Virus record (IMG/VR): IMGVR_UViG_2663762948_000002
Strand: one strand, 5' to 3'
DNA: 12,850 nt
DNA from: a virus
Lineage: Duplodnaviria; Heunggongvirae; Uroviricota; Caudoviricetes
Shown: in pieces, positions 18 through 12,850 of the stretch
How positions within the stretch are numbered: the first letter of the stretch is position 1
Layout: each line of letters begins with the position of its first letter
Made by a program: the position numbers and the translations under genes
Notes under the pieces: generated by a model
What the model saw: only the letters and a program-made list of their open reading frames with translations
Told to the model about the DNA's origin: nothing
Database searches by the model: none

Positions 18-1214
18 TTATGCAAGCCTCACAATATAGTTAAATGCGATGTTTTTGACGGTGTTTTCCGCGTTACCAGCAGCGTTAACGGTGATGGTGT
101 GTCCATGTGAACCAATCGCAACGGAGTGCGTATGAGCACCAATAACGCGATCTTTTACTGGCGGGTTCGAGCTGTTCACCACAACGTTAAAACCAGCCTG
201 CTTAAGCTGGGCTATATCCGTCGTACTTGCGTTACTTGATTTTCTGGAATCCCCGGAAGCATCTGGATAAATATAAATTTCCCTCACTTTCCGGTAATCA
301 TTCCCATCATACAGCCAGAAGCGTTCTTTAATGATGCGGATCATATCCGGCGTATCGTAGGCATTGATGATTTCAGTTACCGCACATGGAAGCCCCAAAC
401 GCAGCACATGGACGATTCCCGCCATCTTTCCAACGTTAAAATCCATCCCAATATAAATCGGCTCCCCTGGCTGCTCCACTTCTTCGCAATTATTCAGTTT
501 CCGGTCAAACTGATGGTAAACAGTACCACTTGTCAGGTTAGTAAACTGTCCTCGAAGATAGGCTTTAATCAGCTCTGGAGGGTATGATTCAAGAAGCGAA
601 GGAATGTAATCTGCTGGCAGGTTCTTTTCATTATCGAAAGTAGATGCCTGCACCAGACCATACAGTGAGGCCAGCTCTGTTTTTTCACGCACGGCTTTAA
701 CAAACTGCTCGTAGACAAATTTGAATCCTTCCGGCGTGGTTGTAACGTCAATACCGTTGCGAAGTCCATCAATCTTATAACGCATACGTGCAATTATCTT
801 GCGCCACGCCGTTCTGGCTTTTTCCTTCGGCAAAATGTCCAGTTCATCCACCAACGCATTACCAATTTTGAAACCGACGATCGTTTGTGGCTTCTCCATC
901 GATCTGCAGATAGTGGTTCCCCGATACTGGCGTCCGTAATAAAAGTGAACCTCTTTATTTCCCTCATTAATTTTTACGTTCAATCCCCAGTCAGCAGCAA
1001 CTTCTTCCACTGTAGGGTAAAAAATATCGCGAATTTGGGGATACGTTGGCGCAAAATATCCCTGATTTATACCTGGATGCTCCCAAATCCCCTTGCATAT
1101 GCCGCCACACCCAACCCATGTTTTGCCCGAGCCAAAACCAGCAATATAGGCTTTAAATTTATGGGGCATTGAAAGAAATCGCGCCTGAGGCACATTAAGC
1201 GTCGGAGAGATCAT
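18..1214 (-). CDS. Phage terminase large subunit (TerL). ORF runs to 1223 (GTG); ATG at 1220 and 1214 are alternatives, and 1214 has the best spacing (8 nt) from an AAGGAG ribosome-binding site.
   Basis: Walker A-like P-loop AGFGSGKT near the N-terminus; about 400 aa; start overlaps the 3' end of the upstream small-terminase ORF by about 20 nt; sits directly downstream of the lysis cassette as in lambdoid late operons. Confidence 0.8.
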   Translation of the reverse strand: MISPTLNVPQARFLSMPHKFKAYIAGFGSGKTWVGCGGICKGIWEHPGINQGYFAPTYPQIRDIFYPTVEEVAADWGLNVKINEGNKEVHFYYGRQYRGTTICRSMEKPQTIVGFKIGNALVDELDILPKEKARTAWRKIIARMRYKIDGLRNGIDVTTTPEGFKFVYEQFVKAVREKTELASLYGLVQASTFDNEKNLPADYIPSLLESYPPELIKAYLRGQFTNLTSGTVYHQFDRKLNNCEEVEQPGEPIYIGMDFNVGKMAGIVHVLRLGLPCAVTEIINAYDTPDMIRIIKERFWLYDGNDYRKVREIYIYPDASGDSRKSSNASTTDIAQLKQAGFNVVVNSSNPPVKDRVIGAHTHSVAIGSHGHTITVNAAGNAENTVKNIAFNYIVRLA

Positions 1215-1860
1215 CTTCATCACTCCTTACTCTGGCATCAACCACATTAATATTGATCGCCACAGGCTGGGGATGTTCATTATCTTCCACCGTTTCGATC
1301 TCTTTGCGCAGCTTCTGGTTTTCCATTCTGCGCCGTTCAATTTCCAGTTCCTGTAGCCGTTTATCTGCACATAAAGCCCCGCCAGCAGAAAACAAACGCA
1401 ACAATTCACGCCGGGCGGCAGCCTTATCCTCCAGCAGGATCTCAACGCCGAATTTTCCGAATTTTGCCCCTGCATATAATTGCCGCGCATCCCCATCAAG
1501 CAGAGTGGTATCAGCCATATAAAGCTGTCCCGTTCCCTCACCGCAGCACTTCGGGCAGTCCGGATTGGGTATGGCGTTATCAACAAAGCCGAGGCCTCCA
1601 TATTCCGGTTCGGGTTTGCCATCTCTGGAAGCCTGCGCCGCTGCCTTGTCGAATTCTGCTATATCGCGCCACTGGTAGAGATGATTCTCGCCCCAGCAAT
1701 AACGGCAGTTAACACGGCGAAATTGTGCAAGCTGATTGGGGTCGGCCAGGACAATAGCCATCAACTGACTCACTAGTAAATCCAGGTCTGCGGTATAGCG
1801 TTTCTGGTACTGATTGCGGAAGTAGCTGATAGCGCGAAAAACCCTGGCATTTCTAAGCAT
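1195..1860 (-). CDS. Phage terminase small subunit (TerS), start uncertain. The ORF extends to a TTG at 1956 (253 aa); the first in-frame ATG is at 1860 (221 aa).
   Basis: Sits immediately upstream of TerL with overlapping stop and start; coiled-coil-like charged C-terminus; two Cys pairs (CRYC and CPKCC) suggest a zinc-ribbon-like element. The first 32 codons of the long form are low-complexity S/G/A-rich and neither candidate start has a good ribosome-binding site. Confidence 0.6.
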   Translation of the reverse strand: MLRNARVFRAISYFRNQYQKRYTADLDLLVSQLMAIVLADPNQLAQFRRVNCRYCWGENHLYQWRDIAEFDKAAAQASRDGKPEPEYGGLGFVDNAIPNPDCPKCCGEGTGQLYMADTTLLDGDARQLYAGAKFGKFGVEILLEDKAAARRELLRLFSAGGALCADKRLQELEIERRRMENQKLRKEIETVEDNEHPQPVAININVVDARVRSDEDDLSDA

Positions 1861-1962
1861 ACGACTGGCGTTGCTGTTAGCTGTCGCACCTTGCCCCTCA
1901 TAACCGGCTAAGTCAGAACTTTGTCCGGTCGCCCGTGAGTCAGAATAAAGGCGCAAAAATCA

Positions 1963-2754
1963 TCACGCATATTCCTCCTCCTCACCACCATGCATGATCT
2001 CCACCATGCGCTGCGTCATCCGGACAAATCCATTTTCAATAGCCTGCTGATAATCAATGATCACCAGCGCCGACTCCTCGAAAAAACACTGAATTTCAGA
2101 GGGGGCGTGAGCGTAATAGTCCGCAATTCTGCTGAAATTAAACACCGTGTGACGTTCTGCCGCACACAGGAGGAATTTCTCAATATCAGGCTCAAGGGAC
2201 GCCGAACGTATCCGGCTGATCAGCTCCTGAGTTTTCGTATCGTCGTACAGTTCACTGATATCCGGTTTACCGCCCGACGGCTCATAAACAGGCGTATCAA
2301 TTTTCGTCGTATACGGCTCCTCCTCATTTCCTGTACCGGGCAAAACATCCGTCAACAGTTCATCAATTTCTGTCGGGATGAAGCCTGTCAGGGAGACATC
2401 AAAATCAGCATTGATTAGGTCCGACAGCTCCATCCGCAACAGATCTTCATCCCAGCCAGCATTCATCGGCAGGCGATTATCTGCCAGGCGGTACGCCTTT
2501 TTCTGCTCATCCGTCAGGACAGACAGAACAATGACCGGAACAGAATCCATTTTGAGCATTTCAGCCGCCATAACACGACCGTGACCCGCAATAATTTCGC
2601 CCTTTTCGTCAATCAGCACCGGATTAGTCCAGCCGAATTGCTTAATACTTTCTACCAGTTGTGCCACCTGCTCAGGGCTGTGCGTCCTGGCGTTGTGCGC
2701 ATACGGTGACAATTCTTGTAATGGGCGATAGACTATCTTTAATTTCTCGCTCAT
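1963..2754 (-). CDS. ParB-like nuclease domain protein (ParB/Srx N-terminal domain, acidic C-terminal domain of unknown function).
   Basis: N-terminal region carries the ParB-type motif (IIAGHGRVMAA) within a roughly 90 aa ParB/Srx-like segment; ATG at 2752-2754 preceded by AAGG; located just upstream of the terminase genes, a common position for ParB-like nucleases in phages. Confidence 0.7.
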   Translation of the reverse strand: MSEKLKIVYRPLQELSPYAHNARTHSPEQVAQLVESIKQFGWTNPVLIDEKGEIIAGHGRVMAAEMLKMDSVPVIVLSVLTDEQKKAYRLADNRLPMNAGWDEDLLRMELSDLINADFDVSLTGFIPTEIDELLTDVLPGTGNEEEPYTTKIDTPVYEPSGGKPDISELYDDTKTQELISRIRSASLEPDIEKFLLCAAERHTVFNFSRIADYYAHAPSEIQCFFEESALVIIDYQQAIENGFVRMTQRMVEIMHGGEEEEYA

Positions 2755-2770
2755 ACAGCCTTGCTTTATG

Positions 2771-2805
2771 AATAAAACGCACCCCAGCAGCCAGTGCTAC
2801 TGGGG
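2771..2805 (-). terminator. Putative Rho-independent terminator downstream of the trkG-like gene.
   Basis: Inverted repeat CCCCAG / CTGGGG (plus 2782-2787 and 2800-2805) with a 12-nt loop that may pair further; on the minus strand the stem is followed by a U-rich run (TGCGTTTTATT). Confidence 0.45.
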
Positions 2806-2891
2806 ACGGAGGGGTTGCTGGTAAAGTTAGGTATTGGATCAATGAGTGAGTCAACATAATATTAAACTCACAATTATAAATCAGCCATATA

Positions 2892-4349
2892 TTAGGAGCG
2901 CCAAAAAAAACCTGAAAACAATATAATAACAGGATAAATTTCAAGGCGACCAAGAATCATAGCTATGCACATTAAACATTTTGCAATGTCATTAAGCACT
3001 CCGAATGACGATGCAGTAGCCCCAAAACCTAATCCCATATTATTAATACATGCAGCCACTGTTGCAAATGATGTAAGAAAATCATATCCCATACCATTTA
3101 ACACCAGTATAAAAAACACCGTGAAGAGAGTATAAAGAAAAAAGAAACTCCATACAGACCTCATTACACGATCTGTAACTATCTTCCCTCCTACATTTAC
3201 ACTCAACAACGCTCTGGGATGAGAAAGCTGATTTATCTCGTGTTTGCTTTGTTTGAAAAGTATAAGAAATCGAAGTGACTTAATTCCACCACAAGTTGAA
3301 CCTATACATCCCCCAAAGAAACTTGACAACAGCAAAAACACTATCGTGTGCGTGGGCCAACTTGCATAATCCTGCGTAGCTAAACCATTATCAGTGAGCA
3401 TGGAGCTGGCAAGAAAAAACGAATGAATAAAACTTCCATGCAAGTCATACATACCTATATGCCAGACCTGGAAAGAGGTAACAATGATCACCCCTAAGGC
3501 TATTAACAGAAAGAAACGAAGTTCAATATCTCTGATTAAAGGTTTTATCGTTTTCCTGCTAATAACAATATACCAAAGAGTGAAGTTGAAAGCCGATAGC
3601 AGGGAAAAAGAACCAGCCACCAGCTCAACCAAATAGTTATTAAAATATCCGATACTCTCGCTATGAGTTGAGAAACCACCAAGCGAAACTGTGGAAATCC
3701 CGTGACAAATAGCATCAAACAAAGGCATTCCTGCAAGTCTATAACAGACAATACAAGCAATACCTAATAAAGAATAAGTTATCCACAGTGTCCGTGACGT
3801 ATCGGCCAGGCGGGGAGTGAGTTTGTCATCCTTAAATGGCCCCGGCATTTCTGACTGATAAAGCTTTGCACCACCAATACCCAATAATGGCAATACAGCA
3901 ACCGCCAGAACAATAACTCCTAAACCACCTATAAAATTTAACTGTGACCGATAGTACAAATATGCCCGAGGTAATGAACTAACATCATCAATTACAGTTG
4001 CTCCTGTTGTTGTTATTCCAGAAACCCCTTCAAACAGAGCATCAATGAACGTTAAATTAAGTTCTGAGTCAATCCATAAAGGGAATGCACTAATAACAGA
4101 AAACAAAATCCAAAACATTACAATTATAATAAACCCATCACGGGTACGTAATTGAATGCCAGATTTCTTAGTTGTATACCACGCTCCGCCACCAATGCAA
4201 AAAAATATAACGAAAGTTATAAAGAAAACGAACAGGCTTTTTTCTTTATAAAACAATGCTACAACCATTGGTGGCAACATTGAAAGACTATAGAGCCAAA
4301 CCAGGAACCCACACATATGAGTAACAACTCTTACATGAGATGTATTCAT
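2892..4349 (-). CDS. trkG: Trk-system potassium uptake protein TrkG/TrkH family (485 aa from the ATG at 4347-4349; the ORF extends 6 codons further to a TTG).
   Basis: Polytopic membrane protein of TrkH/TrkG length and character; from memory it closely matches E. coli TrkG (begins MNTSHVRVVTHMCGFLVW). The gene is visibly AT-richer than the flanking phage genes and sits between the lysis and packaging genes, as trkG does in the Rac prophage. Confidence 0.9.
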   Translation of the reverse strand: MNTSHVRVVTHMCGFLVWLYSLSMLPPMVVALFYKEKSLFVFFITFVIFFCIGGGAWYTTKKSGIQLRTRDGFIIIVMFWILFSVISAFPLWIDSELNLTFIDALFEGVSGITTTGATVIDDVSSLPRAYLYYRSQLNFIGGLGVIVLAVAVLPLLGIGGAKLYQSEMPGPFKDDKLTPRLADTSRTLWITYSLLGIACIVCYRLAGMPLFDAICHGISTVSLGGFSTHSESIGYFNNYLVELVAGSFSLLSAFNFTLWYIVISRKTIKPLIRDIELRFFLLIALGVIIVTSFQVWHIGMYDLHGSFIHSFFLASSMLTDNGLATQDYASWPTHTIVFLLLSSFFGGCIGSTCGGIKSLRFLILFKQSKHEINQLSHPRALLSVNVGGKIVTDRVMRSVWSFFFLYTLFTVFFILVLNGMGYDFLTSFATVAACINNMGLGFGATASSFGVLNDIAKCLMCIAMILGRLEIYPVIILFSGFFWRS

Positions 4350-4486
4350 ATCTAAATATTCTTTCAATTATAACCACCTTGCTGCAATATTATGATTATA
4401 CTGTATAAAATTTAACTCCTCTTAGATCTTACTTCACTGTTCCTTATGAAACAATCATCAAAATGAATCATATTGTAGTTAAGATT

Positions 4487-4951
4487 TTACTTTAAACACT
4501 GCTCGGTTATGTATTGCTGAGCACCTTCAAGTTGGGCCTGCATCATTACCAGTCGTTCCCGGAGGGTGAAATAATCCCGTTCAGCGGTGTCTGCCAGTCG
4601 GGGGGAGGCTGCATTATCCACGCCGGAGGCGGTGGTGGCTTCACGCACTGACTGACAGACTGCTTTGATGTGCAACCGACGACGACCAGCGGCAACATCA
4701 TCACGCAGAACATCATTTTCAGCTTTCGCATCAGCTAACTCCTTCGTGTATTTTGCATCGAGCGCAGCAACATCACGCTGACGCATCTGCATGTCAGTAA
4801 TTGCCGCGTTCGCCAGCTTCAGTTCTCTGGCATTTTTGTCGCGCTGTTCTTTGTAGGCGATGGCGTTATCACGGTAATGATTAACACCCCATGACAGGCA
4901 GACGACGATGCAGATAACCAGAGCGGAGATAATCGCGGTTACTCTGTTCAT
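4487..4951 (-). CDS. Rz: Rz-type i-spanin (inner-membrane spanin), 154 aa starting at the ATG at 4949-4951.
   Basis: Near-identical by recall to lambda Rz ([15 protein letters not shown]..., [53 protein letters not shown]); N-terminal TM segment; its ATG overlaps the endolysin TGA stop (ATGA overlap) as in lambda R/Rz. Confidence 0.92.
4546..4731 (-). CDS. Rz1: Rz1-type o-spanin (outer-membrane lipoprotein) embedded in the +1 frame inside Rz.
   Basis: 61-aa ORF entirely within Rz; signal peptide with lipobox VVGC; proline-rich (PPPPP, PPP) mature region; near-identical by recall to lambda Rz1. Confidence 0.9.
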
Positions 4952-5445
4952 TGCTGACCCCACAAACAGATTTCACGCTCAATCTCACGACGAGTCATGA
5001 GACCTTTCCATTGCTTACCGCCAGCATATGTCCAGCGACGTAGCTGATCACATGCGCCTTTGATATCGCCCTGGTTTATTTTGCGAAGAAGCGTCGATGT
5101 TCTGAAATTGCCAGCACCCACGTTGTAAACGAATGAGTAAAGAGCGCCGCGCGTTGTTTCCGGTATATCGACTTTGATGTACGGGTTAATTTGTCTGGCG
5201 ACCGTGGCAAGGTCTTTATTCAAGAGTGTTTTGCATTCTGCTTTGGTATACGTTTTACCGAGCATGATGTCTTTTCCTGTATGCCCGTGACATACAGTCC
5301 ATACACCAACAATATCTTTGTATGGTATGTAGCTGACACCTTCCAGACCATCGTTACCACTTGGGCCAGTGATTAACACTGATGCTATAGCAATTGCTCC
5401 GCCACCAATAGCAGCAGCAACGACTTTTCGTAATGATGGAGGCAT
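4948..5445 (-). CDS. SAR (signal-arrest-release) endolysin, phage lysozyme of the P21 R / E. coli RrrD type.
   Basis: 165 aa; N-terminal Gly/Ala-rich weakly hydrophobic SAR segment ([18 protein letters not shown]) followed by a lysozyme-like domain; by recall nearly identical to the DLP12 lysozyme RrrD; its ATG overlaps the holin stop (TAATG). Confidence 0.9.
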
Positions 5446-5660
5446 TATTCACCTCTCGCAGCCTTGCGCTTATCTTCTTTAATCTTGAAATAAAGGTTTG
5501 TCAGGTACGTCAGCAGGCCAAATACCAGACTACCCAGCACACCGATTGCAGCCCACTGTGACGGAGTTACTCTATCGAGCAACTGTAAAAACCAGTAGCC
5601 AGCACTGCCTGCGGAGGTGCCGTAGGCAATGCCTGTTGAAATTTTGTCCATGGATTTCAT
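5445..5660 (-). CDS. Pinholin (phage 21 S-type class II holin), 71 aa with a dual-start motif (Met1-Lys-Ser-Met4). The ORF extends upstream to 5717 but the supported start is the ATG at 5658-5660.
   Basis: Two TM segments (the first Gly/Ala-rich and SAR-like), charged C-terminus [13 protein letters not shown]; MKSMDK dual start typical of S21 antiholin/holin; strong ribosome-binding site GGAGGTGAGG 4 nt upstream of the ATG at 5660; immediately upstream of the SAR endolysin. Confidence 0.88.
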
Positions 5661-5761
5661 AGCCTCACCTCCGCACGGAACGGATGGCATAGTTATTATG
5701 TGTAGGCTTTCAGACACATCAATCAGAGCCTTAATTGATATATATGCTGGAGACGATGCAA

Positions 5762-5786
5762 TATAAAAAGCTCGCCGTAGCGAGCT
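5762..5786 (-). terminator. Rho-independent terminator between the lipoprotein cassette and the holin gene (minus strand).
   Basis: Perfect 7-bp stem AGCTCGC / GCGAGCT (plus 5769-5775 and 5780-5786) with a 4-nt loop; on the minus strand the stem is followed by TTTTTAT. Confidence 0.6.
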
Positions 5787-5911
5787 AATAAAATGTATTT
5801 CTCTGATATTATGTTTATTTGTATTAGCTCAGACTTGACATCACAGGTTTCGTATATAGAACATCATCAAATCTGTCAGTTTGCTATGAATGAGATATAG
5901 TAATTGAAGAG

Positions 5912-6307
5912 CTAACCTCGCATGTCAAAGCCAGATTTCTGAAAATCTCTGTAGACTTCCGGATTGTTGAAGGCCGGAAATTTGGCTTTATGAGCTGCGG
6001 ACTTTATCGCTTCGCAATAGGCTTTATCACCGTTACTGGTAGATATTTTTAACGCCGTGCCATCCTGAGAGAATTCCATATGCAACCTGCATTTTTTCCC
6101 TTTCCAGTTATGCGGCTCATCAAGTTTGGCATTAATTGCAGCTCTGATTCCCCGCGCTTGCGCCCCCCATTCATCCTGATCATCCCAGCGTCCTGAACTG
6201 CAACTACCTGTAGCAGTAGTTTTGTGGCAATCTGAAGGGTGTAAAGGTGTGCATCCCGCAACAAAACCGACCCAAAAAGTCAACATAACGATTTTCTTTA
6301 ATCCCAC
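5912..6307 (-). CDS. Predicted outer-membrane lipoprotein with a TolA domain III-like C-terminal domain (131 aa, GTG start).
   Basis: Signal peptide MGLKKIVMLTFWVGFVAGC with lipobox VAGC and Thr at +2; GAGGAG ribosome-binding site 6 nt upstream of the GTG; C-terminal roughly 80 aa align with the TolA C-terminal domain as I recall it (GK.C.L ... DG ... C ... AK.P ... P.VY..F) and with the downstream paralog. Confidence 0.75.
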   Translation of the reverse strand: MGLKKIVMLTFWVGFVAGCTPLHPSDCHKTTATGSCSSGRWDDQDEWGAQARGIRAAINAKLDEPHNWKGKKCRLHMEFSQDGTALKISTSNGDKAYCEAIKSAAHKAKFPAFNNPEVYRDFQKSGFDMRG

Positions 6308-6457
6308 TTCTTGCTCCTCAATCCATTAAAATCTCAGCAATAGTAGTTGTTACGTCCGCCACTGGCTCAGAGCTGACTATCCGCTAAATTTAGCTCAGTG
6401 CCGTAGCTGTGTCAGAACAAACCTAAGCCGAAACCGTTTATTACAAAACAATAAATA

Positions 6458-6886
6458 TCAGGGTTTAAAATCCAGCACCCCATTTTGAAATACTTTATAT
6501 ACTTCCGGCGAAGGGGGGGCAGGTATATCAGCATTCTTTATCGCATTCATCGCTTCACGACATAAATCGAGGTCTCCACTTTCTCTTTTAACCTCCAGTA
6601 GAAGGCCATTCGGGGCCATATGCATTCTCAGTGTACACTCTTTTCCTGAATACTTACTCGCATCCCCGAACTGTTTTTCGATGGCGCTCTTGATTTGATG
6701 GGCATACAGACGGATATCCTCACTAACATCAGAAGTACGTTCAGATGAACTCACATACTGTGTCTCTATTGCTTTATCGGAGTAATATGATGTACGGTCA
6801 TGATAATTTGTCGATACAGCATCAGTGCACCCGATAATAATCCCACTAATAATCAACGTAAGAATTGATGCGCTACGAAAACCCAT
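6458..6886 (-). CDS. Predicted outer-membrane lipoprotein with a TolA domain III-like C-terminal domain (142 aa), paralog of 5912-6307.
   Basis: Signal peptide MGFRSASILTLIISGIIIGC with lipobox IIGC and Thr at +2; GAGGA ribosome-binding site upstream of the ATG at 6884-6886; C-terminus (IKSAIEKQFGDASKYSGKECTLRMHMAPNGLLLEVK...DLCREAMNAIKNADIPAPPSPEVYKVFQNGVLDFKP) strongly resembles E. coli TolA domain III, which by recall ends ...KPPSQAVYEVFKNAPLDFKP. Confidence 0.8.
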   Translation of the reverse strand: MGFRSASILTLIISGIIIGCTDAVSTNYHDRTSYYSDKAIETQYVSSSERTSDVSEDIRLYAHQIKSAIEKQFGDASKYSGKECTLRMHMAPNGLLLEVKRESGDLDLCREAMNAIKNADIPAPPSPEVYKVFQNGVLDFKP

Positions 6887-6916
6887 TTTTCCTCACATAT
6901 GTCATATAGTAAAGGA

Positions 6917-6945
6917 TTATATATACCGTTGTTTTGGACGCTCAA
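6917..6945 (-). promoter_or_regulatory. Putative sigma70 promoter for the lipoprotein cassette.
   Basis: On the minus strand: -35 TTGAGC (plus 6940-6945), 17-bp spacer, -10 TATAAT (plus 6917-6922); predicted start about 25 nt upstream of the 6886 ATG. Confidence 0.45.
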
Positions 6946-7477
6946 ACAGCGAATCAGATCAAATAAAACGCACATTTGTTAACATTTACACAAAGTCTGC
7001 GTGGGATATTCTGAAAGAATATCCATAATGTGGAGAGAATCTATTGAAGTGCATGGTGCCGGGTGCCTCCCGGTGAACAAAATGTTCGTGATACCTGTCG
7101 GCGACAGAAAAGGTTAATGGTATCACCCCACCGCACAGGGGGATTCACCATGCAGGAGTTTTCTTAGCAAACTCACTGCGCGCCCGGCAACTCCCAACCA
7201 CATAAAATGCGGAGTTTGTGGTATTTATGCATATAACTCGCAGGAATTATCTTAAAAAACTGATGTCGATCCGGATTAAAAAGAAGCAGGTCATCATCAG
7301 ATGACTGGAAAAAAGGAAAACAAAAAATACTCATCATACAGTTTTGATTGCAGGGATGAGCCTGCTATGCACAATATGCAGAATATAAGCAAGATAAAAA
7401 TATGCAGGCATATTATTTCGGATTTTGTTATTAACACAACCTTTTTAATAATCATTTGGCATACAATAAACCAGCCC

Positions 7478-7503
7478 AAAAAGAACCGCCTAAACAGGCG
7501 GTT
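7478..7503 (-). terminator. Rho-independent terminator (minus strand) between the Q-proximal region and the lipoprotein cassette.
   Basis: Stem AACCGCC / GGCGGTT (plus 7484-7490 and 7497-7503) with a 6-nt loop; on the minus strand it is followed by CTTTTTGGG. Confidence 0.6.
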
Positions 7504-7823
7504 GGTCAATACAAAGGATGCTTCGTCTTTATTATAGTAATCTGAGGCGTCGGGTGTCTTGTATCAGACAACATATTGTCCCGCTAAACAGCGAATTACA
7601 AACCACCCTGCAATGATCTCTCATCTCATTTTATATGAGTTGACGACATCAGGATAACGCATCATCAGCCCCTGCCAAGAAATATCAAAACTCCCGCCAG
7701 CAATGTGTTATCACAATATTGTAAAAAAAACACAGCACCGAAACTATAACTGGTCTCTGTTATAATTTGGAGCAGAAAGACCAGTTGCCCAACTAGCAGC
7801 ATTCTCCCCTGCTTTCCTGACGT

Positions 7824-7850
7824 AAAAAAACCGCATTAAGCGGTTTTTTT
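7824..7850. terminator. Bidirectional intrinsic terminator about 80 nt downstream of the putative Q gene; candidate tR'-like terminator of the late leader.
   Basis: Perfect palindromic hairpin AAAAAAACCGC-ATTAA-GCGGTTTTTTT: a GC core flanked by an A7 and a T7 run, so a U-tract follows the stem on either strand. Confidence 0.65.
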
Positions 7851-7930
7851 ACGATGTCCATGTCTGCAATCCGCCTCGCGATACAGCTTTGCGAAGCATA
7901 GCAAAATTGAAGCAGTTTATACGTAAGAAA

Positions 7931-8473
7931 TCAAGCCATTTTCTCAGCAAATGATTCACGCATGGGAATATATAGGGCATACTCAGCAACAGCTAACCAA
8001 TTAGCAATCCGTTTTTCGCATGTGCTAAAACACCACTCTGGGTGTGCATCATTTAGCAATTCAGCCATTTTGCGCTTAGTCATCCCCCGCCCTTCATAGC
8101 GTTGCCGGAGAATGCAAATCAATCCTGGATGCTCTGCCAGCACCTCACTTATGACTCGATCAATACATAACGCCTCTGCATCAGTACAATGCGCCAGCCA
8201 GCTCTTTTGCTTGCCGTTGATCATCTCTCGCAAAAACGCTTCCAGCTCAGCTTTCTCTATTCCCGCTTTTTTCATTCTGCGCAGGGCTTCATTAATGGCT
8301 GTTTTCGTCAGTTTTTTGGATGCCAACAACTGATTGAACATATTCCCTGACCTGCCACCGCCAATATACGACCAGCGCCCCCACATACGTAGTTTTCCCT
8401 GAATCCAGACACTTTCCAGCGTGGTGAGGCGAAGGTGTTCTCCGCTTTTTCCTGTATTCGTTGGGTAAATCAT
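7931..8473 (-). CDS. Putative late-gene antiterminator Q (Q21/Q82-like family), 180 aa.
   Basis: Occupies the Q slot, last gene of the nin-type operon and immediately upstream of terminators and the lysis cassette; start overlaps the stop of the upstream YbcO-like gene; N-terminal W..WGRW motif and a C-terminal helix-turn-helix-like segment resemble non-lambda Q proteins. Family assignment is from memory, not a search. Confidence 0.55.
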   Translation of the reverse strand: MIYPTNTGKSGEHLRLTTLESVWIQGKLRMWGRWSYIGGGRSGNMFNQLLASKKLTKTAINEALRRMKKAGIEKAELEAFLREMINGKQKSWLAHCTDAEALCIDRVISEVLAEHPGLICILRQRYEGRGMTKRKMAELLNDAHPEWCFSTCEKRIANWLAVAEYALYIPMRESFAEKMA

Positions 8474-8760
8474 AAATGACCTTTCTTTCTCCAGATTTCT
8501 TGTGTGCGAAAAACCCCTTCAGCATGCATCAGGCGCAATTCTTCTTTGGTGTAATCGCTGGTTTTTACCCGCCCGTCGATTAGATCGTGGCATGAGCTAC
8601 AGGCTATCGCCGCCTGCATATCGTGTGGTTTTGTCGCTGTTCCGCACGTCCCCGCCAGCCTGTAATGCGCCAGCACAGAGGTTTCGGGATTGTGATTGCA
8701 GTAGCCAGGGATTCTGATCTGGCACATCTGGCCTTTAGCCGCTTTACGTAAATTCACCAT
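8470..8760 (-). CDS. YbcO-like nin-region protein (Cys-rich putative nuclease), 96 aa.
   Basis: Aligns by recall with E. coli DLP12 YbcO (LRKAA.G..CQ.RIPG.CN.NPETSVLAH.RL.G.CGT.TKP.D...IACS.CHD.ID.R); conserved Cys/His pattern; translationally coupled to its neighbours on both sides. Confidence 0.7.
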   Translation of the reverse strand: MVNLRKAAKGQMCQIRIPGYCNHNPETSVLAHYRLAGTCGTATKPHDMQAAIACSSCHDLIDGRVKTSDYTKEELRLMHAEGVFRTQEIWRKKGHL

Positions 8761-9359
8761 TACGCAAACTCCAGTAGTTGTGCGGCCACATTTTCAACTT
8801 CCTCATGAGAGGAGAATTTACGAAACAGAATCCAGTTCCACAGCACATTCAGTACAGATTTATAAACCTGCTGAAACTCGACTTCGTCCATATTCGCAAA
8901 AGCGATGGATTTTGCCCGACGCCCACGGCTACCGTCCGGATAAATATGCTCGGTGTAAAATCCGGCCTGAATGGTTACCCACTCGCGGAAAGCCTCAAAC
9001 GACTTTAGCAACGCCGTATCCCGGGTTCTACGAGTCGCAACGGTGTTAAGGTATTGCTCTGCGGCATCACTCAGGGCTGGCGTGTGTTCCCGACCAACTG
9101 ATTCGCACAGGTAATCAACGAAACCAGACAGCAGTTCTCGTTCGCGAGGCGTGATCGCCCCACCGACCGGAGTCCAGTAATCGAATCCCAGTTGCAGGAG
9201 TTTGAAAAAACGCTTGTGGAATGCGTAGTTACGCACACGCTTAAAGTCTGCGTGTATCCACTCACCTATTTTGATTTGATGCAGAAAATCGCAACTCTCC
9301 GGCGTCGCCGGGAGAAGTAAACCAGAAGAAGTTTGTTTGACCAGTTGTATATGCGCCAT
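8760..9359 (-). CDS. Lambdoid nin-region protein of unknown function (199 aa); possibly the DUF1367-type family, unverified.
   Basis: Intact 199-aa ORF with its stop overlapping the YbcO-like start; position upstream of YbcO/Q as in nin regions; no motif I can assign with confidence. Confidence 0.55.
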   Translation of the reverse strand: MAHIQLVKQTSSGLLLPATPESCDFLHQIKIGEWIHADFKRVRNYAFHKRFFKLLQLGFDYWTPVGGAITPRERELLSGFVDYLCESVGREHTPALSDAAEQYLNTVATRRTRDTALLKSFEAFREWVTIQAGFYTEHIYPDGSRGRRAKSIAFANMDEVEFQQVYKSVLNVLWNWILFRKFSSHEEVENVAAQLLEFA

Positions 9360-9417
9360 TTCTCAATCTCTCGATGGCGCAGCGCAGCAGATGCCAGTTG
9401 TTCAGGCTGACGAATAA

Positions 9418-9445
9418 AGTATAAATAAACTGGCTATGGTGTAAA
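9418..9445 (-). promoter_or_regulatory. Possible sigma70 promoter upstream of the nin-Q operon.
   Basis: On the minus strand: -35 TTTACA (plus 9440-9445), 16-bp spacer, -10 TATACT (plus 9418-9423), about 60-75 nt upstream of the 9359 ATG. Confidence 0.3.
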
Positions 9446-9639
9446 GCCCCACATAGCATGAACAAACACTACATATCAAATAGCTGGTACAAGGATAGAA
9501 ATACGACATTTATTATTAAAAACGATTAGATAAATTACATTTTAATGTTATGCAAAAGTTCTTTTTTATCATAACATTTCAATAAAAGCATTACAGATGC
9601 AATCATCCCGTCATCATCAATTATTTAAGGTGGTTAAAC

Positions 9640-9726
9640 ATGGAAAATAACAAGTTCGCACATCTCGCTCCTTTTTTATCCGTAATCCTTTTCGCTTGTT
9701 GTTTTATATGGGCATTATTTTTATAA
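9640..9726 (+). CDS. Candidate small hydrophobic protein (28 aa, MENNKFAHLAPFLSVILFACCFIWALFL); possible small membrane protein or type I toxin-like peptide.
   Basis: ATG at 9640 preceded by ribosome-binding site AAGGTGG (9628-9634, 5-nt spacer); a single predicted TM helix; lies in an otherwise ORF-free AT-rich region. Too short for statistical support. Confidence 0.3.
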   Translation: MENNKFAHLAPFLSVILFACCFIWALFL

Positions 9727-10117
9727 AGTAGCCACATGATAAGTTGCTGGAATCATATTTCCCACTCAAGTCATTAACATTTGATAAGATATATCTAAAA
9801 GGACGCCTTTACATTATTTATGTGTATATAATTTATTTATATACACAGTAAAGGTATCCTGGGAAAATATTTATCGTTAAAAAATACATCATAAATAATC
9901 AAGCTGAAATTTCAGAACACAACTAATACACACAATAAGGTTCAGTAACAATAATCTATGTGGACTACATCGAGATTTTTTGATTAAACTTTAATAACTT
10001 ATTCCTAACACACAGAATGCATAAACTAAAAGTAAAACAAATAGTTATACGAAAAACAACCATATTTATTATATCTTCTCCTCTAATCAACATATCAATT
10101 ATGTGTTTCATAACAGC

Positions 10118-10157
10118 TTGACATAACCCTCAAAAACACGCATTTATAATGCATGTT
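10118..10157 (+). promoter_or_regulatory. Promoter of the yeaR-like gene with an overlapping NsrR-type operator (11-1-11 inverted repeat).
   Basis: AACACGCATTT-A-TAATGCATGTT at 10135-10157 closely matches the NsrR consensus as I recall it; TATAAT at 10145-10150 lies inside the operator; TTGACA at 10118-10123, although the 21-bp spacing to that -10 is non-canonical. Confidence 0.5.
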
Positions 10158-10172
10158 TTTGAGGAGGTGGTT

Positions 10173-10511
10173 ATGACACACAAGAGAATTCCTAAAGATT
10201 GGGTAATCAAACGCTCAACTCCGTTCTTCACAAAAGAGAACGTACCTTCAGCGTTATTAACACATCATAATACAGCAGCAGGTGTTTTTGGGCAGTTGTG
10301 CGTAATGGAAGGCACTGTAACATATTATGGTTTTACTGATGAGAATGCTACTGAACCGGAGATAAAAGTAGTCATTAATGCTGGCGCTTTTGCAACAAGC
10401 CCACCACAATACTGGCACCGTGTTGAACTAAGCGATGATGCTCAGTTTAATATTAACTTTTGGGTCGCTCCAGACTTCTCGGGCGAAAAAGTCTATAGCA
10501 CCAAAAAATAG
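10173..10511 (+). CDS. YeaR-like protein (DUF1971 family), 112 aa from the ATG at 10173. The ORF opens at 10149 but the ribosome-binding site supports 10173.
   Basis: Ribosome-binding site GAGGAGGTGG 3-4 nt before the ATG at 10173; the protein shares motifs with E. coli YeaR by recall (RSTPF, SVM.G.V.Y.G..DE...EP, FNI.F.VAP); the gene is AT-rich. Confidence 0.75.
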   Translation: MTHKRIPKDWVIKRSTPFFTKENVPSALLTHHNTAAGVFGQLCVMEGTVTYYGFTDENATEPEIKVVINAGAFATSPPQYWHRVELSDDAQFNINFWVAPDFSGEKVYSTKK

Positions 10512-10540
10512 ATGATCATATTAAAAATGCTTTAACAGTC

Positions 10541-10577
10541 AGACCCGGCAGGGCTATCCCCGACGGGTCTCATTTTT
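10541..10577 (+). terminator. Rho-independent terminator downstream of the yeaR-like gene.
   Basis: Stem AGACCCG / CGGGTCT (10541-10547 and 10564-10570) with a structured loop, followed by CATTTTTG. Confidence 0.55.
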
Positions 10578-10725
10578 GTAAATATATTGGTTCTACATTG
10601 ACAGGAGACTTCAACCATAAGAAGTAATCTGAATACTTGAGCAATAAATTTACTTAAGATTAATGAGCGCACCTTGCCGGACAAAGATAAACCAAGGTAA
10701 CACCTTTTTTCTAGCCAGTATGTAA

Positions 10726-10815
10726 TCAATCAGAAAGCCGCTCCATAAGAACAACAGCAAGACAATAAATTGCCATTACAGCCGCAATAGCTAGCGCACA
10801 TTTGAGAACCAGCAC
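10726..10815 (-). CDS. Candidate small hydrophobic protein (29 aa, GTG start, MLVLKCALAIAAVMAIYCLAVVLMERLSD).
   Basis: Consensus ribosome-binding site AGGAGG 5 nt upstream of a GTG (plus 10813-10815); one predicted TM helix with a charged C-terminal tail; it is in a different frame from the longer 74-aa ORF in the track, which looks spurious. Confidence 0.3.
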   Translation of the reverse strand: MLVLKCALAIAAVMAIYCLAVVLMERLSD

Positions 10816-11234
10816 GACAACCTCCTGTATTGGACGTACACCAGTTCTGATAAATATGAGGCTGTCTCATCATTGATTCAATATAACTATTGGGTATAGT
10901 TTCTGTGATTTTGTTCTGTAGAAATGGAACACAACAACCAGTCACCACCAGCACTTCTTTAAATACGCCAAGTCCGACGCAAGCTAACCTTCTAGTCCGC
11001 TTTGAGCGAGGAGCGGACCAAACCCGGCCAACTGACTCTTAAAGGGGCCGCAGGAATTTTTCGTCTGAACTTTCGAAGCTCCTCTCCCTGAAGACAGAAA
11101 ACTTCTGTGTGCTGTGGGAATATTGAATCTTTGCCTTAGATATAAATAATTTTATCCCGCCTGAAGTTTACATTATTTTATTTATCTGTTTTTCTAAATC
11201 AGACTGCACTCCTTACTTAAATCAGGAGCCAGTC

Positions 11235-11771
11235 ATGCCATTTGTTATTTATGTGTTTACTATCAGTGCCTTTGCGCTCGGACTCGCGGAATTTGTCCCC
11301 ATTGGGCTGACAGACGTTATGGCTCAGGGGTTGTGTGTGGGTGTGGAGCAGACCGGGGCAGCGGTTACAACCTATGCACTGGGGGCAACGTTCGCGGCAC
11401 CCGTACTGTCTGCGCTGACAGCAAGCTGGAGCCGGAAAAATGTAATGCTTACAACTGCCGTTGTGTTTACTGCCGGTAGTCTGGCGGCCGCGTTTGCAGC
11501 CACATTACCTCAGCTCCTGTTAGCGCGGTTCATTGCTGGTCTGGGACACGGCCTGTTTCTGGCTGCGGCATCCAGTACCGCAGCTCGTCTTGCTGGACCG
11601 GGTAAAGCAGGCAGAGCGGTGGCTGTGGTATTTGGTGGCTTTACTCTGGCGATGGCAATCGGCGTACCGCTGAGTACATGGTTGCCCGTGGAGACATTGG
11701 CACGAATGCAGATTATGTATGGAAACTGCAGGCCACTCTGGGTGCGTTGGGAATACGGAATGATTACGTGA
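11235..11771 (+). pseudogene. Truncated MFS-family transporter gene (N-terminal roughly 155 aa of an expected roughly 400 aa protein).
   Basis: ATG at 11235 with AGGAG ribosome-binding site; N-terminal half resembles MFS transporters (about 5 TM helices, loop motif LTASWSRKN); the reading frame ends after a non-MFS-like tail, only 67 nt before the next gene, with no continuation in another frame. Confidence 0.6.
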
Positions 11772-11838
11772 GTGAACTGGCCCTTGCTCTGCATGAGGCT
11801 CCCTGTAACGATAAACTTCATCAGCGAGGCGCTTCACT

Positions 11839-12720
11839 ATGAGCCATCTGAGCCATCTGCGAACGTTTCTTGAGGCCTATCGCTCTGGCTCCTTTTCAAA
11901 GGCGGCAGAACTACTGGGCATCACTCAGCCCGCGGCGTCACAGCATATCCAGTCTCTTGAGACTCTGGTTGGTAAGCGTCTGTTTATCAGGCAGGCCAGA
12001 GGCGTGACGGCAACCGAAGCTGCGGATGAGCTTGCCCGCTCAGTTTCACCCTTCATTGATGGTCTGGAAGAAAAGCTGTCCTCTTTCCGGTCAGGCTCTG
12101 TACGCGGGGGAACAATTAATCTGGCAGGACCGCCAGATTTTATTCATTCCCGGCTTGGGACAGTAATGGCTCCACTAATGAAGGAGGGGTATCGCCTACG
12201 CTTTCATACCGGCAATAAGCAACGTATTTATTCCCTTTTGCATGACGGGAGCGCCGATCTCGCTGTTACCGCATCTATGCCTGATGACCGTCTGTACGGC
12301 TATGCACATCTACTGACTGAACGCATGCTCCTTGTTCATGCTCCCGCCATGTCAGAGATCATCGGATCAGAACCTGGTGCTGAAACGCTTGCCTCATTAC
12401 CGCTGATTGCTTATGACGAAGAGTTGCCACTGATTAGAGCGCTCTGGGCCTCCATGTTTCAGAGAGCCCCTGAGATGCAGGCTACATTCACCATTCCGGA
12501 TTTACGTATTATCCGCGACTTGGTCTGTGACGGCCACGGGTGGACAGTGCTGCCGGATTATCACTGTGACAATGACCTGAAAAGTGGTCGCCTGATTTCA
12601 GTGACACCTGCAGACCTCGCTCCGACTAATCATCTTTATCTGGTCTGGAACAAAAGGACGGCTAATAACAGCCGAACCGCCTATGTTCGGGATTACATTC
12701 TTAAAACGTTTCCGCGTTGA
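11839..12720 (+). CDS. LysR-family transcriptional regulator (293 aa).
   Basis: N-terminal helix-turn-helix typical of LysR regulators (LSHLRTFLEAYRSGSFSKAAELLGITQPAASQHIQSLE) followed by a substrate-binding domain of typical length; GC-rich coding sequence. Confidence 0.85.
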   Translation: MSHLSHLRTFLEAYRSGSFSKAAELLGITQPAASQHIQSLETLVGKRLFIRQARGVTATEAADELARSVSPFIDGLEEKLSSFRSGSVRGGTINLAGPPDFIHSRLGTVMAPLMKEGYRLRFHTGNKQRIYSLLHDGSADLAVTASMPDDRLYGYAHLLTERMLLVHAPAMSEIIGSEPGAETLASLPLIAYDEELPLIRALWASMFQRAPEMQATFTIPDLRIIRDLVCDGHGWTVLPDYHCDNDLKSGRLISVTPADLAPTNHLYLVWNKRTANNSRTAYVRDYILKTFPR

Positions 12721-12850
12721 TGTTTGAAACGGATGATTGGCGATGCGTATCATAAGTTACGTATGTCCGCTTCTGGCACAAAGCAGACGCCCACTCTCAC
12801 GCGAATGCTTTGCCCTTGACTTGCCAACAACCGTATCGCTTGCTCCGCAA

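Follow-up and report, generated by a model that had tools for sequence, protein, structure and literature searches.

Genes and features of the locus

The 12,850 nt of DNA analysed here, which we refer to as the window, carry on their minus strand the late region of a lambdoid prophage. The trkG gene lies in the part of this region that joins the lysis genes to the packaging genes. The features that we identified, in order of position, are the following:

18-1214, minus strand: large terminase fragment (residues 1-357 of 433) with the last 41 residues of StfR joined to it in frame
1195-1956, minus strand: small terminase fragment, lacking residues 1-113 of 364 and an ATG start
1963-2754, minus strand: ParB-like protein YnaK, full length at 263 aa (ParB_N 7e-7; phrog_620 6e-90)
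2772-2805, minus strand: terminator-like hairpin (about 2805-2782) with T-tract; 10-bp stem including 7 G-C pairs, 4-nt loop
2815-4514, no strand: low-GC block, delimited by a two-breakpoint likelihood fit
2892-4349, minus strand: trkG coding sequence, ATG at 4349, 485 aa; membrane subunit of the Trk potassium uptake system
4350-4486, minus strand: AT-rich intergenic region 5' of trkG, 137 nt, 25.5% GC; presumed site of the gene's own promoter and of H-NS binding
4487-4963, minus strand: Rz (i-spanin), full length, 152/154 residues identical to the Rac reference (Pfam Phage_lysis 4e-53)
4546-4731, minus strand: Rz1 (o-spanin lipoprotein), embedded in Rz, recognised from its translation with lipobox VVGC
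4948-5445, minus strand: phage lysozyme, RrrD-like (Pfam Phage_lysozyme 2e-45 and annotation)
5445-5660, minus strand: holin, EssD-like, P21 S family (Pfam Phage_holin_2_1 4.5e-35 and annotation)
5912-6307 and 6458-6886, minus strand: two genes with a TolA C-terminal domain (Pfam PF06519, 1e-14 and 2e-23)
6997-7183, minus strand: Rfam match to STnc100 (86.6 bits against a gathering score of 47)
7931-8473, minus strand: Q-like late antiterminator, DUF1133 (phrog_753 2e-79 and annotation)
8470-8760, minus strand: HNH/YbcO-like gene
8760-9359, minus strand: NinB-like gene

An earlier note, made from the sequence alone, had placed a full-length gene of the TrkG/TrkH family between Rz/Rz1 and the ParB-like and terminase genes, and this arrangement is the one found: Rz (4487-4963) lies on one side of trkG and the ParB-like gene (1963-2754), followed by the terminases, on the other. 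The open reading frame that encloses trkG spans 2892-4367 on the minus strand, with the annotated ATG start at 4349, and the terminator-like hairpin falls between the stop codon of trkG and the start codon of the ParB-like gene.

About 750 nt separate the STnc100 match from the Q-like antiterminator gene upstream of it. Judging from this position, the match probably represents the leader of the late transcript, which is read in the direction of the lysis genes and trkG. Another strain has an IS1 element immediately next to it, at window position 7222-7229. The two TolA-C-terminal-domain genes sit between the late-promoter region and the holin and encode paralogous predicted lipoproteins (lipoboxes VAGC and IIGC), both assigned to phrog_5772, 'unknown function'. 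A role as decoys, for colicins that bind TolA or for filamentous phages, is conceivable, as is interference with Tol-Pal; a brief literature search found no description of the pair. The window contains no tRNA genes; some other Rac copies have tRNA-Gly and tRNA-Thr upstream of the lysis genes.

The lowest-GC part of the window is not the trkG block but the interval 9466-10148 (26-30% GC), about 680 nt devoid of any open reading frame of at least 50 aa and largely non-coding. It separates the NinB-like phage gene from a block of plus-strand cargo genes (10149-12850; also seen at 24248-31560 of L001), encoding a DUF1971 protein, an MFS transporter and a LysR regulator. In NZ_AP021890, whose full-length Rac is interrupted by IS insertions, this block continues with a DUF2254 protein and a transporter of the BCCT family (betaine/carnitine/choline-type), so that some Rac copies carry two transporters of the osmoadaptation type. 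ON470595 has different genes at this site, for an S8 peptidase and an FtsH-like ATPase, so that the site is a variable cargo hotspot.

A defective copy of the Rac prophage

Comparison with the Rac prophage of E. coli K-12 identified the element. Positions 2501-4931 of the window align without gaps with the K-12 segment containing rzpR, rzoR, trkG and ynaK, with only 8 differences in 2431 nt (99.7% identity), and positions 1-147 match the stfR/tfaR junction of K-12 Rac. The stretch from 143 to 12850 is 99.5-100% identical to fuller Rac prophages of other E. coli, found in the 20 genomes listed. In these fuller copies the order of genes is Q-like gene, lysis genes, trkG, ParB-like gene, two hypothetical genes, small and large terminase, portal, capsid and tail; on the other side lie the early genes recET, kilR and sieB, with an integrase adjoining ttcA. 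This integrase end abuts ttcA both in K-12 and in ON470595, and the window ends short of the attachment sites. The DNA is collinear and near-identical with K-12 and full-length Rac alike and, since the flanks of trkG share this near-identity, the element is Rac itself and not another phage with the same cargo.

Three deletions, all of which leave trkG and its flanks untouched, distinguish this copy from full-length Rac. The large terminase ends at residue 357 of 433, at a fusion junction at about 143-147, beyond which the reading frame continues into the StfR tail; the portal, the capsid and all tail genes are therefore deleted, and nothing lies between the terminase fragments and the tail-fibre end in the window. 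A second deletion, of 1.4 kb at about 1904-1914, occurred at an imperfect CCGG(C)TA(A)GTC microhomology and removed two hypothetical genes (about 310 and 69 aa) together with residues 1-113 of the small terminase. The third, of 1.3 kb at 11683/11684, truncates the MFS transporter gene, whose product is cut to 178 aa; a gamma-glutamylcyclotransferase gene is lost with it. At the junctions there are 1-5 nt of microhomology, a pattern that natural deletions could produce.

None of the 5426 complete E. coli genomes contains either of the two junctions searched for, at about 143 and about 1904. The junction of the large terminase with stfR has no exact match in a collection holding one genome per species, and neither the terminase-StfR fusion protein nor the truncated proteins, including the MFS product, occur in a large gene-position index. 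Since the junctions and their products are absent from these collections, the deletions are private to the source of the sequence or, less likely, assembly artefacts.

With both terminases incomplete and the portal, capsid and tail genes missing, this is not a packaging-competent prophage. It is a defective remnant of Rac whose head and tail genes were lost by a deletion other than that of K-12. The K-12 copy is without holin and lysozyme genes, the greater part of Rz, two-thirds of ynaK at its 3' end and any terminase sequence, whereas the copy in the window keeps these but has its own deletions, one within the small terminase and one running from the large terminase through to stfR. The ParB-like protein is 262/263 identical to its full-length Rac reference. 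Common to both copies is the position of trkG, with Rz/Rz1 upstream (a remnant in K-12) and ynaK downstream.

Protein, composition and expression signals of trkG

The predicted protein is complete at 485 aa and matches the Pfam family TrkH (PF02386) over residues 40-483 with E = 5e-145 (484 bits against a cut-off of 27). According to the alignments with the two K-12 paralogs suggested in the earlier note, the gene is trkG proper: the protein is 100% identical to K-12 TrkG (b1363), with 1456/1458 nucleotides conserved and both differences silent, and only 40.7% identical to K-12 TrkH (b3849). The solved chains of the Vibrio TrkH (3PJZ and 4J9U) match TrkG over nearly its full length, with E = 1e-120. 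We assigned the selectivity-filter glycines by alignment to the matching loops of 4J9U and found all four kept, one per pore loop: G116 (TTTG), G224 (SLGG), G322 (TDNG) and G439 (NNMG). A full-length TrkH domain above the curated threshold and four glycine-bearing pore loops place the protein in the Trk/Ktr/HKT superfamily; its closer similarity to K-12 TrkG than to TrkH, together with the presence of D327, places it in the TrkG ortholog group.

The biology of this protein in K-12 has been described in detail. TrkG takes up K+ in a Na+-dependent manner, and also takes up some Na+ (PMC9898762, Tanudjaja 2023); D327 has been tied to this Na+ dependence, and the protein works with the host TrkA (PMC9898762), the gene for which is a host gene lying outside the window. 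Expression of trkG is partly repressed by H-NS and StpA without being silenced; it is similar in level to that of trkH, and the gene contributes to the K+ supply of the uninduced lysogen (PMC9898762). Family, fold, four pore loops, glycines and the TrkA gating ring are common to TrkG, E. coli TrkH and the TrkH of Vibrio parahaemolyticus, but TrkG is Na+-dependent, Na+-permeable and H-NS-repressed, and TrkH is none of these (PMC9898762). As the protein in the window is identical to that of K-12, these published results on transport and regulation transfer to it directly. Complementation of K+ uptake in a kdp kup trkG trkH background has likewise been carried out with the K-12 protein.

The earlier note had also judged trkG by eye to be richer in AT than its neighbours, and the computed values agree with this. 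The gene has a GC content of 38.1% (GC3 32.3%), compared with 46.6-52.2% for its immediate neighbours Rz, the ParB-like gene, the small terminase and the lysozyme, and the whole interval 2771-4486 has 37.3% against 46.6% for the phage backbone (chi-square 48, p = 4e-12). The edges of the fitted low-GC block are within about 45 nt of this interval, which is the one that the note had singled out. Synonymous codon usage is likewise distinct, both from that of the pooled phage neighbours (chi-square 98, 41 df, p = 1e-6) and from that of trkH (p = 1e-18). A GC content of 38% for trkG against 53% for trkH, and the location of the gene in rac, were already stated in PMC9898762, citing Schlösser et al. 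1991. The gene, its low GC content, its place in Rac, its regulation and its transport activity are textbook biology of K-12 and have already been published.

The AT-rich region 5' of trkG (4350-4486) is the same as in K-12, with no differences anywhere between 4231 and 4709. A scan for promoters returned 5 sites where 6.0 are expected by chance from shuffled sequence, and the upstream region contains a single weak promoter-like match, at 4496-4467. As the scan did no better than chance, the case for a promoter of its own is drawn from the K-12 experiments and the identity of the upstream sequence. Around trkG we found no scars of capture, only short AT-rich repeats of the kind arising by chance.

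Origin, distribution and role of trkG

TrkG forms a clade across the Enterobacterales, with members in E. fergusonii (79% identity), Citrobacter (77%), Pectobacterium (75%), Enterobacter (70%), Serratia (66%) and Xenorhabdus (62%), all of them far closer to the gene in the window than TrkH is. Among relatives outside E. coli whose sequence was recovered at near full length, the nearest shows only 79% identity. DNA similarity to the E. fergusonii copy is 72% and stops within about 20 nt of the open reading frame. TrkG-type paralogs were examined in three contexts, none of which is a prophage late operon. The E. fergusonii paralog (L005, 6001-7458) is found among chromosomal genes and its GC content matches its flanks. 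The Enterobacter paralog (L008, 6001-7476) has 57% GC, equal to its flanks, and lies between radical-SAM and multicopper-oxidase-like genes near parC; this gene looks native. The Serratia paralog (L010, 6001-7461) lies in a genomic island together with a primase-helicase gene and transposase remnants.

Within E. coli, trkG with its flanks is present in 1551 of the 5426 complete genomes, and 1516 of 1555 matching records carry it at an identity of at least 99%. In the same set of genomes the ParB-like gene is full length in 946 and the Rac large terminase is present in 784, at near full length in about 750, so that about half of the carriers of trkG have a Rac without terminase, a fraction inflated by the abundance of K-12 derivatives among the complete genomes. 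This pattern agrees with a published report in which trkG and recE are the few Rac genes named as well conserved, trkG being retained across decayed copies (PMC5700373, Krishnamurthi 2017). Neither the phage records nor the complete E. coli genomes contain an empty site in which Rz is joined directly to the ParB-like gene, and every record with this ParB-like gene next to Rz also has trkG. As no empty-site relative is known, the insertion of trkG is deduced from its composition, and the gene seems to have become fixed in the Rac lineage long ago.

Lambdoid prophages are known to carry morons beside the lysis cassette, of which lambda bor is an example; these genes are expressed in the lysogen, have an atypical composition and their own terminator, and lie between the lysis and packaging genes. 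In its slot, its composition and its terminator-like hairpin trkG resembles them, but unlike genes of the lambda bor type it points the same way as the late operon, and its product is a large polytopic transporter. Of the features of a moron, the atypical composition and the terminator-like hairpin are present; promoter-like matches are no commoner than in shuffled sequence, and no empty site was found.

That this is the trkG of the E. coli Rac lambdoid prophage, a piece of foreign low-GC cargo in a defective remnant, is in our view the best explanation of the locus (probability about 0.95). Identity, position, composition and distribution of the gene were observed directly; that it is expressed and useful in the source strain we infer. 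TrkG is the pore-forming membrane subunit, built of four M1-P-M2 repeats each contributing one selectivity-filter glycine, and pairs with the cytoplasmic gating ring TrkA encoded by the host. Unlike its core paralog TrkH, it needs Na+ for K+ uptake, a need linked to D327, and also lets Na+ pass. Its gene is foreign cargo of low GC content, lodged where the lysis cassette meets the packaging genes and in the orientation of the late operon. In the lysogen it would be transcribed from the AT-rich region just upstream, partly repressed by H-NS, with the hairpin terminating transcription after the gene.

The earlier note had read the locus as the same cargo in an intact phage context; were a different, intact temperate phage to carry a trkG-like gene independently, trkG would be moving on viable phage. 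The context is indeed fuller than in K-12, with holin, lysozyme, Rz/Rz1, the full-length 263-aa ParB-like protein and terminase sequence all present, and to this extent the claim of a phage context stands: the copy is less decayed than that of K-12. It is not intact, however, both terminases being truncated and the head and tail genes deleted, and it is not another phage, its flanks being Rac at 99.5-100%. Ten GenBank records named 'phage', each with trkG, the ParB-like gene and Rz, could be cited in favour of such a phage. We rejected them as viable phages, as they are predicted prophage regions that take in ttcA and dbpA of the host, and their source is a bioinformatic survey, not isolated virions. 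An independent intact phage is extremely improbable.

Two other readings accept the element as Rac and concern the role of the gene. If trkG were a late gene for lytic growth, expressed via the Q-dependent late promoter and not mainly of benefit to the lysogen, it could, for example, hold up cytoplasmic K+ or membrane potential and tune the timing of the holin. Its place inside the late operon and in the same orientation, with the Q-like gene and the STnc100-type leader upstream of it, would suit this, as would the fact that no Rac relative lacks it. However, trkG at an identity of at least 99% is found in roughly twice as many genomes as the Rac large terminase, including K-12, in which the late genes are gone; the terminator-like hairpin and the separate AT-rich upstream region fit an autonomous unit; and expression and function have been published for the uninduced K-12 lysogen (PMC9898762). 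We therefore hold a mainly lytic role to be very improbable. A gene inside a Q-dependent late unit, co-oriented with it and missing from no Rac relative, could also help the phage as a late gene besides serving the lysogen, for instance by maintaining K+ or the membrane potential and so determining when the holin is triggered; for this addition we see a small chance only. Low GC and an AT-rich upstream region are also typical of H-NS targets, and trkG might on this ground be xenogeneically silenced, neutral passenger DNA that persists by linkage only. Against this, its reading frame is intact and nearly invariant in more than 1500 genomes, while neighbouring phage genes have been deleted repeatedly, and in K-12 the gene is repressed but not silenced, is expressed at about the level of trkH and adds to the K+ supply (PMC9898762). 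A neutral passenger is accordingly very unlikely.

On the preferred reading, that of trkG as lysogen-serving cargo of a decaying Rac, the window is one more independent case of a Rac prophage decaying around an untouched trkG, by deletions unlike those of K-12. Decay that spares the gene in this way is consistent with selection for the transporter at the level of the host.
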